A DNA stretch of 52,403 nt, from sequence record DRR378314_244; one strand, given 5' to 3'. The position numbers and the translations under genes are program-made. Each line of letters begins with the position of its first letter. Position 1 is the stretch's first letter. This document shows, piece by piece, positions 24,087 through 28,248 of the stretch. The notes below the pieces were generated by a model. The model saw only the letters and a list, made by a program, of their open reading frames with translations, was not told the origin of the DNA and did not search any database.

Positions 24087-24935
24087 ATGAAACTTATTCG
24101 TTACGGTGCCGAGGGTGCTGAAAAACCCGGAATGCTGGACAACGCCGGCCTGCTGCGCGACCTTAGCGGTCGTATCACGGACATCACCGGCGACACCTTG
24201 GATGATGCCACGCTTGATAAGCTGCGCGCGCTTGATCCTACCGAGCTGCCCATTGTCGAAGGCGAACAGCGTATTGCGCCCTGTGTCGGGAACATCGGTA
24301 AATTCCTGTGTATCGGACTGAATTATTCCGACCATGCCGCGGAAACCGGAGCGGCAATTCCCGAACATCCCATCCTGTTTTTCAAAGCAAACTCTGCCAT
24401 TGTCGGTGCCTATGACGACGTGGTGATGCCACGTGGATCGACCAAAACAGATTGGGAAGTCGAACTGGGGGTGGTGATCGGCAAAACGGCAAAATACGTC
24501 TCTAAAGCGGAGGCTTTAGAGCATGTTGCCGGTTATTGCATCGTCAACGATGTATCCGAACGCCATTTTCAGGCCAATCTGACAGGGCAGTGGACCAAGG
24601 GTAAATCCTGCGACACATTTGGTCCAACCGGTCCTTGGCTGGTCACACGGGATGAAATCGAAGATCCGCAAAACCTTGATATGGCGCTGGATGTAAACGG
24701 CAAACGGATGCAGACGGGCAATACCGCGACGATGATCTTTACCGTGGCTGAAATTATCGAACATCTGTCCGGCCTGATGACATTGCACCCTGGTGACGTC
24801 ATCACCACTGGGACACCTCCCGGCGTCGGTCTGGGTATGAAGCCGGAACCGGTTTTCCTCAAGAAAGGGGATGTCATGGACCTGACCATTCAGGGGTTGG
24901 GCCACCAGCGCCAGAAAGTAGATCAAGATGCCTGA
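24087..24935 (+). CDS. Fumarylacetoacetate hydrolase-family protein (2,4-diketo acid hydrolase-like)
   Basis: CIGLNYSDHA, DWEVELGVVIG, NDVSER, KGKSCDTFGP, GDVITTGTPPGVG. Confidence 0.92.
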   Translation: MKLIRYGAEGAEKPGMLDNAGLLRDLSGRITDITGDTLDDATLDKLRALDPTELPIVEGEQRIAPCVGNIGKFLCIGLNYSDHAAETGAAIPEHPILFFKANSAIVGAYDDVVMPRGSTKTDWEVELGVVIGKTAKYVSKAEALEHVAGYCIVNDVSERHFQANLTGQWTKGKSCDTFGPTGPWLVTRDEIEDPQNLDMALDVNGKRMQTGNTATMIFTVAEIIEHLSGLMTLHPGDVITTGTPPGVGLGMKPEPVFLKKGDVMDLTIQGLGHQRQKVDQDA

Positions 24936-25851
24936 TCTCTTGCAAATCGGCGGCATCACCGACACGATGCGCAACCGGCTTTCTGCCGCCTTTACCATTC
25001 ACCAACTCGATGATTTTAATGCGGATAAAATCACCCATGTTGTGACCAATGGGCACGATGGGGTGAACCCTGAATTGCTGGCCTCCCTGCCAAACCTCAA
25101 AGTCGTAAGTGGGTATGGCGTGGGCTATGACGCCATTGACGCAGAGGAGGCGGCGCGGCGCGGGATCATCGTGACCCATACGCCAAACGTGCTGAACCAA
25201 GAGGTGGCAACCACTGCTGTGATGCTGATGCTGGCCTGCTACCGCGAAATGCTGCGCGATGATGCCTATGTGCGATCAGGGGAATGGGAGGCCAAGGGCG
25301 GCGCGCCGCTGACCCGTTCTGCGGACAACCAAACCGTTGGGATTTTGGGGCTGGGGCGCATTGGTCAGGCGATTGCGGACAAGCTTGCCCCTTGGAATGC
25401 CAAGATCATCTATCACACCCGCAGCAAAAAGGATGTGCCCTACACCTATTACGACAATCTGACCGACATGGCACGGGATGCAGATGTACTGATTTGCATC
25501 ACGCCGGGTGGTCCCTCGACAAACAAGATCGTCAGTGCCAAGGTCTTGGCCGCCCTTGGCGCACAGGGCACGCTGATCAACGTCAGTCGCGGATCGGTGG
25601 TGGATGAGGCCGCGATGATTACCGCATTGCAAGACGGCACATTGGGCTGGGCTGGGCTGGACGTATTCGAAGGTGAACCCCATGTCCCTCAGGCGCTGCG
25701 CGATCTGCCCAATACTGTCCTGCTGCCCCATGTCGGCAGCGCCACGGTTGAAACCCGTGCGGCAATGGGTGCGCTTACCGTGGATAACCTTTTGCAACAT
25801 CTGAAAGATGGCACCGTGATCACAGCCGTCCCCGAATGTGCGCATCTGTAA
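24928..25851 (+). CDS. D-isomer-specific 2-hydroxyacid dehydrogenase (glyoxylate/hydroxypyruvate reductase-like)
   Basis: GVGYDAID, GLGRIG, INVSRGSVVDE, AGLDVFEGEP, LLPHVGSAT. Confidence 0.92.
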   Translation: MPDLLQIGGITDTMRNRLSAAFTIHQLDDFNADKITHVVTNGHDGVNPELLASLPNLKVVSGYGVGYDAIDAEEAARRGIIVTHTPNVLNQEVATTAVMLMLACYREMLRDDAYVRSGEWEAKGGAPLTRSADNQTVGILGLGRIGQAIADKLAPWNAKIIYHTRSKKDVPYTYYDNLTDMARDADVLICITPGGPSTNKIVSAKVLAALGAQGTLINVSRGSVVDEAAMITALQDGTLGWAGLDVFEGEPHVPQALRDLPNTVLLPHVGSATVETRAAMGALTVDNLLQHLKDGTVITAVPECAHL

Positions 25852-25971
25852 CGTAACCCCAGCGCAGCAATGATTAAGTTTGCGCTGGTGATACTCCTCT
25901 TTCGGGTCCCCCGTGGCATCGGAGTATTGTCATAGCCTTGCTTGCGGCCGCTGTTTCCATCCGTTGAATGC

Positions 25972-26001
25972 AAAAAAGGCGGTACCAAAGTACCGCCTTT
26001 T
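25972..26001. terminator. Bidirectional intrinsic terminator
   Basis: AAAAAAGGCGGTAC-caaa-GTACCGCCTTTT between convergent genes. Confidence 0.88.
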
Positions 26002-26023
26002 CCGTTTGGATTGTCGATTCCGA

Positions 26024-26206
26024 TTAGTCGGAAGCAACAGCCGCAGCAACCAGAGCCAACAGGATCAGTGGCAGTACGATACCGCCAGAAGAACCGGATG
26101 CTTCTTCAACGATTACTGGTGCTTCGATGATTGGATCTGCCAAAGAACCGGCATATGCAGTCGATGCAGCAGCTGTCAGAGCAGCGGCGAGAACGAGTTT
26201 TTTCAT
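26024..26206 (-). CDS. 60-aa secreted microprotein with C-terminal hydrophobic helix
   Basis: Strong GGAGG RBS, Sec signal (MKKLVLAAALTAAASTAYA), acidic Pro-containing linker, hydrophobic tail, and a terminator immediately downstream. Confidence 0.85.
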   Translation of the reverse strand: MKKLVLAAALTAAASTAYAGSLADPIIEAPVIVEEASGSSGGIVLPLILLALVAAAVASD

Positions 26207-26347
26207 AGTTATAACCTCCGATAAAAGGCGTACAGCACAATTGTGCGCACGCGCCCAAGACTTACCTCGTAAGACTTTCTAAACAGCATCAGAAAGCGAT
26301 TGCAAACCCGGATTCCGCTGCTAAGCCCTACAAGAAACACGATGTCG

Positions 26348-26959
26348 TCAAATTAGCAACACTTGCGTACCCACCTGAGCCATCTCGTACAGCTCTTCAA
26401 TGTGTTCGTTATACAAGCCAATACATCCATTAGAGGATTTTCGCCCGATCTTGCGTGTATCATGGGTGCCGTGGATGCGATAATAGGTCCAGCTCAGGTG
26501 CAAGGAGCGCGTTCCCAAAGGGTTTTCAGGACCCGGGCCGATGAATGGGGGCCATTCAGGGTTCCGCTTGAGCATGGACGGCGTCGGACGCCAAGATGGT
26601 TCCGGATCCTTAAGGATAACCCGTGTGCGGCCCCGCCGCGTCAGATCATCGGTCAGCGGCACGCTTGAGGGGTATAATTTGTAGATGCTCTGGTCCTCAG
26701 ACCAGTAGTGTACCGCGCGGCTGTCGATATCGACCAGAATTGCGCCGCCCTTGGTATTATCAAAATACGGCTGCCACTCCAATGTTCGGAAGCTGGAGAT
26801 ATTGCGCCGCACAACCTCTGTCAGGTCGCGCTCTGTCTCCGTTGTGGCGGCAGAGTTTACCGTCGAGGTGGTTTGCGCCAAGGCGGGCGTGGCGAGCATT
26901 GCGACACCGCCAGCGAGAAAGCTGCGGCGGCTTTTCGGGTTAAATCGGTTGTCAGACAT
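26348..26959 (-). CDS. L,D-transpeptidase (YkuD domain), Tat-exported
   Basis: SRRSFL Tat motif; P.WRPTPSM, GPENPLG, RIHGT...IGRKSSNGCIGL. ATG 26959 follows GGAG. Confidence 0.93.
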   Translation of the reverse strand: MSDNRFNPKSRRSFLAGGVAMLATPALAQTTSTVNSAATTETERDLTEVVRRNISSFRTLEWQPYFDNTKGGAILVDIDSRAVHYWSEDQSIYKLYPSSVPLTDDLTRRGRTRVILKDPEPSWRPTPSMLKRNPEWPPFIGPGPENPLGTRSLHLSWTYYRIHGTHDTRKIGRKSSNGCIGLYNEHIEELYEMAQVGTQVLLI

Positions 26960-27123
26960 GCGTGTCTCCATCGCTGTAAGGGGGATTCACCGTAATATAT
27001 GACCCGAAAGACGCAGTATCAAATCAAACAAGCGTCATCCCGCGTGGTAACGCTGATGTGCGTTTGAACTGCAACGCCCTGCAGGGTAAGGCAGGGCTAC
27101 ACAAACGTCGTTGGAGCGGTATT

Positions 27124-27633
27124 ATGTTGCGAATTTTGTCTGTCTTGTTGGCTCTTGCTGTTGCAATCTCGGCCTGTGCCCCTGCCGCACCCCGTATTGG
27201 TGCGGATGGCAAACCTCTGCCAAAAGCCTACCGAATCAGCCGTTCTGACACTGGAAAAATTCAGTTTCGCATGCTCGATTCGGTCAATGCCTTGCGTCAG
27301 GCCGGCGGTCGTACCACAGTTCAATTGAATCCACAGCTGAACGCAGCGGCTGCAACCCATGCCCGCGACATGTCGGTCCAAAACCGGCCCTGGCACTTTG
27401 GATCTGACGGATCTTCCCCCATCGACCGGATCAACCGCGTAGGATATCCGGGCAAACTGGTCGGCGAGACGATTTCAGAAACCTACGAATCAGAGCTTGA
27501 AACACTGGCTGCATGGATGGATCAGCCCGATACACGAAGGGTGATCATGTCTGCCGATGCGCGCAACATGGGTTTCGCATGGTATCAGGAATCAGGTGGC
27601 AAAATCTGGTGGACACTGGTGATGGGCAACTAA
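27124..27633 (+). CDS. CAP/SCP-domain lipoprotein
   Basis: Lipobox ISAC; VNALR, LNAAAATHARDM, WHFGSDGS, GETISE, WWTLVMG. Confidence 0.9.
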   Translation: MLRILSVLLALAVAISACAPAAPRIGADGKPLPKAYRISRSDTGKIQFRMLDSVNALRQAGGRTTVQLNPQLNAAAATHARDMSVQNRPWHFGSDGSSPIDRINRVGYPGKLVGETISETYESELETLAAWMDQPDTRRVIMSADARNMGFAWYQESGGKIWWTLVMGN

Positions 27634-27747
27634 AGCGTTTCGACCAAAACCTGATGCACATAGCATCAAGCAATGCATTGAAATCCCTGATTTCAGGCAG
27701 CGGTATGTGATTCAAGGTTTTCGCGAAGTACCATAGGCCCATCCCGC

Positions 27748-28248
27748 CTATGGGTTAATCTGGATCGGCGTGCCGTCCCCAACCATCGCATAGATTTGTT
27801 CCATTTCTTTGTTCGTGACCGAAATACAGCCCCAGGTCCAATCATCCTTGTCTTTGCGGAACGGCACGCGCTGGCCGTGGATAAATATCTCGCCGCCCGG
27901 CGATTTCCCCATGGCTTCGGCCCGCTGGCGGTCACGCTCGTTGGGATAGGAAATCCCGATTGAGAGATGAAAGCGGCTGTTCGGATTGCGCCGGTCAATC
28001 CAATAGATCCCTTCCGGCGTTTTCCCGTCACCTTCAATTTCCTTATGGCCCGTCGGTGCAAAACCCAGCTTGATCGGGTAGGATTCCAGCACCTTGTCAT
28101 GGTGTAAAAGGTACATGTTACGCGCGCCTTTGTTCACCACCACATAGGTGACTTTCGGCCCGTAATACCGTTTGAATTTACTGTTTCCGCCGCAGGCACC
28201 CAGCGCCACCAGCGCAGTACCACCAAGAATAAGATTTCTGCGTTTCAT
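27748..28248 (-). CDS. L,D-transpeptidase-family lipoprotein, YafK/DpaA-like
   Basis: Lipobox LGAC; HKEIEGDGKTPEGIY, NPNSRFHLSIGISYPN, GGEIFIHG, DWTWGCI. Confidence 0.9.
   Translation of the reverse strand: MKRRNLILGGTALVALGACGGNSKFKRYYGPKVTYVVVNKGARNMYLLHHDKVLESYPIKLGFAPTGHKEIEGDGKTPEGIYWIDRRNPNSRFHLSIGISYPNERDRQRAEAMGKSPGGEIFIHGQRVPFRKDKDDWTWGCISVTNKEMEQIYAMVGDGTPIQINP

Follow-up and report, generated by a model that had tools for sequence, protein, structure and literature searches.

The window analysed here is a single stretch of DNA, 52,403 nucleotides long, from sequence record DRR378314_244. On its minus strand it carries a gene for a microprotein of 60 residues. The gene is real, and it belongs to an unannotated family that was found here only in Rhodobacteraceae. 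The predicted mature N-terminus of the protein is, by sequence, the same module as the N-terminal extension of β-barrel outer-membrane proteins of the Omp25/31 type, and the two co-vary. By analogy with barrels that are attached to peptidoglycan, we tentatively propose that the microprotein is an L,D-transpeptidase substrate, tethered to peptidoglycan through its first mature residue, Gly1. We regard this as the leading reading of the evidence, and as one that falls somewhat short of probable. The gene lies close to genes for two YkuD proteins and a CAP-domain lipoprotein, and an earlier note on this DNA had grouped the four as a candidate tethering module.

The microprotein gene and its family

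The earlier note had described a signal peptide ending in AYA, a Gly start, a hinge, a helix, a ribosome-binding site and a terminator, and all of these are present:

26024–26206, minus strand: coding sequence of the microprotein, 60 residues (translation of the open reading frame)
26150–26206, minus strand: signal peptide, residues 1–19, ending AYA (translation)
Residues 20–41, minus strand: predicted mature Gly start, spacer and Ser/Gly hinge (translation)
26033–26080, minus strand: hydrophobic helix, residues ~43–58 (hydropathy)
26219–26215, minus strand: ribosome-binding site GGAGG, 8 nt 5' of the ATG
~25970–26005, minus strand: intrinsic terminator hairpin of 15 bp with a U run (fold)

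The predicted mature protein is 41 residues long and consists of GSLADPIIEAPVIVEE, an ASGSSGG hinge and then the hydrophobic stretch, over which the Kyte-Doolittle mean for 15 residues reaches its maximum of 3.08 (residues 43–57). The spacer is rich in Pro and Val. The mature part contains five acidic residues and no Lys or Arg, and it ends in Ala-Ser-Asp, with no basic cluster beyond the helix. Since Lys and Arg are absent, standard tryptic proteomics and trypsin-based analyses of sacculi would miss the protein, which may be the reason that it has gone unnoticed.

A search of 5.8 billion proteins gave 437 candidates, among which 403 are relatives of the microprotein. Those that carry a name are called 'hypothetical protein' or, wrongly, 'Ferrochelatase'. 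The second of these is the automatic name in UniRef and the ESM Atlas for family members of 59–61 residues, and the sequence gives no support for it. A search of the ESM Atlas returned the microprotein's own clusters only. No family matched in Pfam at E-values up to 1, or in NCBIfam, and a literature search, to which subscription-only papers contributed through reviews, found no description of the family. A search for longer relatives gave seven matches, apparently with mis-called starts, and was uninformative about fused forms.

The family profile matches in 355 of 401 Rhodobacterales genomes and in 125 of 138 genera; divided by taxonomic family, these are 355 of the 395 genomes of one and none of the 6 genomes of the other. 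A class-level scan of 301 alphaproteobacterial genomes gave full-length matches in none but the 3 Rhodobacteraceae among them; six other genomes gave partial and weak matches extending over at most 39 of the 60 positions. In these 301 genomes the microprotein profile detected no counterpart of the Ala-Asp type in other orders.

The pattern of variation is that of a protein-coding gene. Among 37 orthologues of equal length, the first, second and third codon positions vary in 42, 34 and 58 of the 60 codons respectively, and codon differences from the microprotein of the window comprise 686 synonymous and 522 non-synonymous changes. In an alignment of 50 sequences the invariant residues are M1, K2, K3, L6, A7, A14, A19, G20, P25, E28, P30, V31, S40 and P46.

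The two ends of the mature microprotein

The Gly that follows the signal peptide, which the earlier note had proposed as the acceptor, was examined in a genus-level sample of one genome per genus (61 genomes, 47 of them with the microprotein family; all matches were fetched). A small-x-small site followed directly by Gly is present in 79 of 79 family open reading frames. The first two mature residues are GG in 53, GS in 15, GN in 6, GK in 3, and GT and GA in 1 each. The Gly is kept even in distant paralogues at unlinked positions, whose sequence has otherwise drifted.

The microprotein profile also matched the start of a 216-residue protein in G001, the nearest genome used for comparisons. This protein is the only PF13505 barrel above the cut-off in that genome (49 bits). 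After its signal peptide it begins GSLAEPVV, compared with GSLADPII in the microprotein of the window, and a linker rich in Pro and Val follows before the first barrel strand. Attachment of such barrels has been described elsewhere: those of Brucella and Agrobacterium are joined to diaminopimelate through a conserved N-terminal Ala-Asp motif (PMC10787603; PMC12729407), and those of Coxiella are attached to peptidoglycan by Ldt2 through an N-terminal Gly-Gly, a motif reported to be frequent in bacteria with many L,D-transpeptidase genes (PMC12729407). An N-terminal Gly or Ala is likewise given as the point of barrel attachment by PMC8263019, which also raises the idea that barrels may be detached in Alphaproteobacteria by DpaA-like enzymes.

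Relatives of the 216-residue barrel are present in 32 of the 61 genera. Twenty-six genomes have both genes, and in 21 of these the barrel has an extension with a Gly start; three barrels have no extension and two have other starts. The comparison with the N-termini of outer-membrane proteins of the same genome, which the earlier note had envisaged, shows a shared module. At residues +2 to +4, the microprotein and the barrel of the same genome are identical at 37 of 63 positions, whereas shuffled pairings give 19.5 ± 3.4 identities and 0 of 10000 shuffles reach 37, a test whose independence and significance are overstated because the compared genera are related. Several pairs match at seven of the first eight residues.

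At the other end of the protein is the hydrophobic helix. A Sec signal peptide combined with a very hydrophobic terminal segment is the arrangement of a type I inner-membrane protein, and the microprotein is probably anchored in the inner membrane with its C-terminus facing the cytoplasm. In the genus-level sample, some paralogues have a Lys or His immediately past the helix. Four longer paralogues of 141–147 residues have the architecture of the microprotein followed, past the helix, by a Peptidase_S74 (endosialidase chaperone) domain, which was found in all four of those tested, with scores of 24.3, 33.0, 24.3 and 24.4 bits against the Pfam cut-off of 22. They are located as follows:

L186, 3001–3423
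L187, 2752–3177
L205, 2740–3180
L208, 1679–2107

Both the Lys or His and the additional domain fit a cytoplasmic C-terminus. The Peptidase_S74 domain trimerises and cleaves itself, and the microprotein family is possibly trimeric, a hint that comes solely from these paralogues.

Neighbouring genes and non-coding elements

The genes and boxes next to the microprotein gene are:

26348–26971, minus strand: YkuD protein of 207 residues (here LDT207) with a twin-arginine signal, directly upstream of the microprotein gene and co-oriented with it
27124–27633, plus strand: DalA, CAP-domain lipoprotein, divergent from the LDT207 gene
27748–28248, minus strand: YkuD-family lipoprotein of 166 residues (here YafK166), convergent on dalA
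27024–27037, minus strand: TGA-N8-TGA box facing the LDT207 gene (motif match)
27054–27067, plus strand: TGA-N8-TGA box facing dalA (motif match)

The CAP domain (66 bits in Pfam) and the lipobox, visible in the translation, agree with the earlier description of the middle gene as a CAP lipoprotein. The protein can be named more precisely: it matches the NCBIfam equivalog NF052539 over residues 4–168 with 272.2 bits against a cut-off of 200, which identifies it by sequence as DalA, a divisome-associated outer-membrane lipoprotein. Neither the CAP lipoprotein nor the two YkuD genes are new: they belong to the published DalA / RSP_1199 / RSP_1201 cluster of Rhodobacter sphaeroides (PMC10470522). 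Gene order and orientation are the same in the two species, with dalA between two YkuD genes. By position and synteny alone, LDT207 would be the counterpart of RSP_1199 and YafK166 that of RSP_1201.

PMC10470522 describes DalA (RSP_1200) of R. sphaeroides as a lipoprotein of the outer membrane whose binding to peptidoglycan is non-covalent and which follows FtsZ. The proteins that co-precipitate with it include Pal, FtsZ and RSP_1199, a predicted L,D-transpeptidase; a further predicted enzyme of this type, RSP_1201, is encoded downstream of dalA. Upon loss of DalA, 3-3 cross-links fall from 18.0 to 9.4%; loss of RSP_1199 mimics loss of Pal. Table 2 of the same paper lists a 'Tri-Lys-Arg' muropeptide at 4.3% in the wild type and 1.1% without DalA, identified by ultra-performance liquid chromatography with a single-quadrupole detector. 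RSP_1199 and RSP_1200 have in common one chromatin immunoprecipitation peak of CenR, with TGA-N8-TGA boxes (PMC9275681). The 152-bp divergent region between the LDT207 gene and dalA contains two boxes that resemble these sites, one directed toward each gene; the whole window has 35 matches to the motif, compared with 28 ± 5.4 expected by chance. Term searches of these two papers turned up neither RSP_1198 nor any small gene adjoining the cluster. It is worth adding that a vesicle proteome table for Dinoroseobacter shibae includes the outer-membrane lipoprotein Dshi_3495 as a 'putative SCP-like extracellular protein' (PMC7901474), which may be the DalA counterpart.

The linkage of the microprotein gene to this cluster, expected by the earlier note, is conserved. 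Of the 80 named microprotein loci, 78 have an LDT207 orthologue as the immediately upstream gene on the same strand, the two misses being Octadecabacter genomes. DalA likewise occurs in 78 (the two exceptions have cut flanks) and YafK166 in 71, and both LDT207 and DalA are found in 30 of the 30 closest genome loci. Since these two sets favour close orthologues, one genome per genus was sampled too. In this sample, 33 of 47 genera have a copy of the microprotein gene immediately 3' of the LDT207 orthologue, and 1 of 47 has a copy beside DalA only.

Tandem arrays of two to six microprotein copies are frequent in the genus-level sample, some beside the LDT207 orthologue and some elsewhere. There are six copies in L187, three in L172, and two each in L169 and L180. 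In one genome (G017; L112 / L115) a tandem pair lies directly downstream of a YafK166 homologue (64% identity), with no DalA or LDT207 within 1.5 kb of the pair.

LDT207 matches Pfam YkuD with 75.3 bits, and its closest solved relatives are other YkuD proteins, 6v45 (8e-16) and 9tyw. It had been described as exported by the twin-arginine pathway. With Pfam TAT_signal it reaches 13.6 bits, short of the cut-off of 22.7; despite this, an RR-x-F-[LIVM] twin-arginine motif is present in 65 of the 65 orthologues whose start could be set (75 loci examined), and the description stands. The protein is soluble and has no membrane anchor of its own. A complex prediction for its residues 55–207 with the mature microprotein scored 0.00; it was run without controls and without alignments, and counts neither for nor against an interaction.

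The second YkuD protein, YafK166, was described in the earlier note as a YafK/DpaA-like enzyme. Membership of the YkuD family stands, as does the absence of an Arg two residues past the catalytic Cys, where the alignment has Ser. Arg at this position is found in the E. coli enzymes with transpeptidase activity, and its absence is a trait of DpaA-like proteins and of L,D-carboxypeptidases (PMC8263019). YafK166 shares it with DpaA (LdtF/YafK), Pgp2 and Csd6. As the trait is common to L,D-carboxypeptidases, it does not separate DpaA from these in the case of YafK166. The DpaA equivalog NF040599 gives 46.7 bits, far below its cut-off of 365, and the closest solved relatives are the L,D-carboxypeptidase Pgp2 (2.8e-9) followed by an unnamed YkuD protein, 8ikr, and 4xzz. 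YafK166 also differs from DpaA in being a lipoprotein and in being shorter, with 166 residues against a model of 242 positions. An assignment as the DpaA equivalog was therefore rejected, YafK166 being at least as close to Pgp2. The reactions of YafK166 and of LDT207 are alike not assignable from sequence.

The microprotein gene is preceded by a conserved leader and a candidate promoter:

26225–26270, minus strand: conserved leader (alignment, individual folds, and an RNA-contig start at 26261)
26270–26254, minus strand: near-invariant leader block of 17 nt, ACGAGGTAAGTCTTGGG (alignment)
26225–26256, minus strand: leader stem-loop, in which the sequence varies and the pairing is kept (individual folding)
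26278–26305, minus strand: candidate promoter with conserved TTGCAAT and GCTG-n-TTAGA blocks (27 aligned intergenic regions)

In each of three genomes searched, the leader block occurs exactly once, at the microprotein gene. RNAalifold, run on a MAFFT alignment of the leaders, did not recover the hairpin, which is variable in length, and for this reason the sequences were folded one by one. The hairpin is then present in all 59 leaders with a locatable block, out of 76 examined, with a median minimum free energy of −16.1 kcal/mol and z below −2 in 36 of the 59. It shows compensatory changes and leaves the ribosome-binding site uncovered, in which GGAG is conserved in 35 of 35 aligned leaders. 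Rfam has no family for the leader, and gave only a sub-threshold match on the terminator hairpin. About 30 nt upstream of the candidate promoter is a further conserved sequence, TGACGACAT, which starts with the stop codon of LDT207.

For the terminator hairpin the minimum free energy is −26.4 kcal/mol (z = −4.7), and none of 200 shuffled sequences folds equally well. A 2-hydroxyacid dehydrogenase-like gene (24928–25851, plus strand) converges on the microprotein gene, with this hairpin between them. Because A and U runs occur on both sides of it, the one hairpin may end both genes. A scan for sigma-70 promoters and simple terminators called neither the terminator nor the microprotein promoter.

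RNA-library contigs extend over the microprotein gene in 4 of 4 runs from four studies. Two contigs without mismatch (26006–26261 and 25998–26202) extend between the terminator and a point some 55 nt 5' of the ATG, and their ends at 25998 and 26006 are near the terminator hairpin. As all four runs consist of contigs, they indicate presence in RNA libraries only, not expression level or transcript ends, and depth was not used to rank genes. In one relative, an RNA contig joins the end of the LDT207 gene to the leader, possibly by read-through transcription or DNA carry-over.

A possible tether to peptidoglycan

On the basis of these observations, we hypothesise the following sequence of events. 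The microprotein would be exported by Sec and cut by signal peptidase I past the small-x-small site, which would free the N-terminal Gly. The C-terminal helix, serving as a stop-transfer anchor, would hold the protein in the inner membrane with a cytoplasmic C-terminus, so that about 22 acidic, Pro/Val-rich residues could reach up toward the sacculus. There, an L,D-transpeptidase would form an acyl-enzyme with a peptidoglycan stem, and the free amine of Gly1 would, by analogy with the barrels, resolve it to give an amide bond between diaminopimelate and Gly. The obvious candidate for the enzyme is LDT207, which is encoded immediately upstream and is the putative counterpart of the DalA-associated RSP_1199. 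In this way the inner membrane would become covalently joined to peptidoglycan, through the machinery that probably also tethers the Omp25/31-type barrels of the lineage. It may be speculated that the nearby YkuD lipoprotein without Arg, YafK166, could reverse or limit the attachment.

Covalent attachment is thus plausible by analogy. The fullest form of the hypothesis is a rather unlikely one: that the microprotein is an abundant, possibly trimeric 'inverse Braun lipoprotein', held by a helix in the inner membrane, with its Gly stapled to peptidoglycan by the DalA-associated YkuD enzyme and the link reversible by YafK166.

A number of points weigh against a tether. The first concerns the proposed enzyme. 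LDT207 has a YkuD domain whose catalytic His167 and Cys183 are invariant in 31 orthologues, and to this extent the attaching enzyme of the earlier note stands. Its active site is atypical. Residues 179–188 read Ser-Ser-Asn-Gly-Cys-Ile-Gly-Leu-Tyr-Asn and are invariant in the same orthologues apart from Asn181 (at least 90%), which stands ahead of Gly-Cys in place of the His of transpeptidases, and two residues past the Cys is the invariant Gly185, not the Arg of the E. coli transpeptidases. The Arg rule is not absolute, as Gram-positive transpeptidases carry Asn two residues past the Cys. Nevertheless, the Asn before Gly-Cys and Gly185 mean that LDT207 may not be a transpeptidase at all. Secondly, 13 of 47 genera have only unlinked copies of the microprotein gene, and LDT207 orthologues of at least 58% identity occur in at least 6 of 14 genera in which no microprotein is detectable. 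Together with the linked copies in 33 of 47 genera, this means that the linkage to LDT207 is strong in roseobacter-type genera and not obligatory. Thirdly, the co-variation of microprotein and barrel, already weakened by the relatedness of the genera compared, could come about through common descent, gene conversion or a signal-peptidase context that the two share. As for the barrels themselves, PMC10470522 treats barrel–peptidoglycan links in Rhodobacterales as possible and untested. Finally, the cleavage, location and attachment of the microprotein are all predicted, and a Gly that follows a signal peptide would suit other roles too.

Among these other roles, the one that survives best is that of an inner-membrane accessory, which would bind or position LDT207, DalA or the divisome non-covalently. 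The N-terminus would then be a docking peptide, perhaps competing with that of the barrels. The tight synteny with LDT207 and DalA is consistent with this, as is the association of DalA and RSP_1199 with the divisome (PMC10470522). That LDT207 is soluble, exported by the twin-arginine pathway and without an anchor of its own also speaks for it, as does the atypical active-site motif of the enzyme. On the other hand, 79 of 79 sequences have Gly at precisely the residue predicted to become the new N-terminus, including distant paralogues that are not beside a YkuD gene, and the tandem arrays of 2 to 6 copies are more in keeping with an abundant structural protein than with a stoichiometric regulator. 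We consider the accessory role unlikely, while giving it serious weight.

It is also conceivable that the microprotein is attached through Gly1 without being a mechanical tether, and is instead a cap or decoy: by using up donor stems or enzyme, it would tune 3-3 cross-linking or the tethering of barrels close to the inner membrane. Attachment would have the same support here as in the case of the tether, and in R. sphaeroides the loss of DalA does alter both 3-3 cross-links and a protein-remnant muropeptide (PMC10470522, Table 2). However, such a protein would have no need of a hinge or of a conserved helix with an invariant Pro46, and we consider this explanation improbable.

A further alternative is that the C-terminal segment is a sorting or processing signal, recognised by an exosortase, a rhombosortase or another protease, and that the peptide is released or relocated, to the cell surface or outer membrane for instance. 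A Ser/Gly-rich stretch does stand immediately ahead of the terminal helix, and the self-cleaving Peptidase_S74 domain past the helix in some paralogues indicates that C-terminal processing occurs in the family. Yet no C-terminal sorting model of NCBIfam (PEP-CTERM and its variants, GlyGly-CTERM) matches at E-values up to 1, the protein ends in Ser-Asp with no basic cluster past the helix, and the conserved neighbourhood contains no sortase-like gene. We give this explanation little credence. Lastly, that the open reading frame is due to chance, or that the conserved element is RNA only, might be suspected of something so short, of low complexity, without a family assignment and misnamed in public databases, but is most improbable given a frame kept open in 355 of 401 genomes, variation that is greatest at third codon positions with 686 synonymous against 522 non-synonymous differences, a conserved ribosome-binding site, and paralogues of which some have added domains.

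The tether through Gly1 therefore remains the reading that we prefer. Viewed as a whole, the interpretation in the earlier note has kept its Gly at +1, its linkage to an L,D-transpeptidase-like gene and its resemblance to the N-termini of outer-membrane proteins. It has had to give way on the novelty of the module, which is published, on the membrane of the anchor, which is probably the inner one, on the detaching enzyme, which is no DpaA equivalog, and on the attaching enzyme, which is atypical.

Covalent links between proteins and peptidoglycan set the stiffness of the envelope, the width of the periplasm and the release of vesicles. To our knowledge, only Lpp was well understood until 2021; barrels have been added since, and OutB is the sole inner-membrane case. 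If the proposal is right, Rhodobacteraceae would have a dedicated means of joining the inner membrane covalently to the cell wall, one that uses the recognition module of outer-membrane barrels, and tethering of the inner membrane would be a design of a whole lineage and not a curiosity. A concrete substrate would become available for the RSP_1199/DalA divisome module, and the recognition of protein acceptors by L,D-transpeptidases would become addressable with peptides.

In comparison with known systems, the microprotein shares with the tethered barrels (Omp25-type in Brucella and Agrobacterium, BbpA/B in Coxiella) a Sec signal peptide and a predicted free, small N-terminal residue followed by an extended, Pro-rich and acidic segment. 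It differs from them in having a single hydrophobic helix, no match to PF13505 and an expected location in the inner membrane. With Braun's lipoprotein (Lpp), to which the earlier note had likened it, it has in common that it is a small and probably abundant envelope protein, with strong expression signals, proposed to join a membrane to peptidoglycan. In contrast to Lpp, it has no Cys and hence no lipobox, no C-terminal Lys and no match to Pfam Lpp; its polarity is opposite, and its membrane is probably a different one.

As the 16-residue stop-transfer helix is probably in the inner membrane, the closer analogue is OutB of Dickeya dadantii, an inner-membrane protein that is attached to peptidoglycan by L,D-transpeptidases through a C-terminal Lys box (PMC12274547), and the only cytoplasmic-membrane protein of its kind listed in a review of 2025 (PMC12729407). 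OutB is a secretion-system domain protein, with an N-terminal helix and an Lpp-like Lys box at the C-terminus; the microprotein is a mature peptide of 41 residues with an N-terminal Gly and a C-terminal helix, and it has no such Lys box. The likeness is therefore one of proposed function only: like OutB, the microprotein would connect the inner membrane to peptidoglycan through the action of L,D-transpeptidases.

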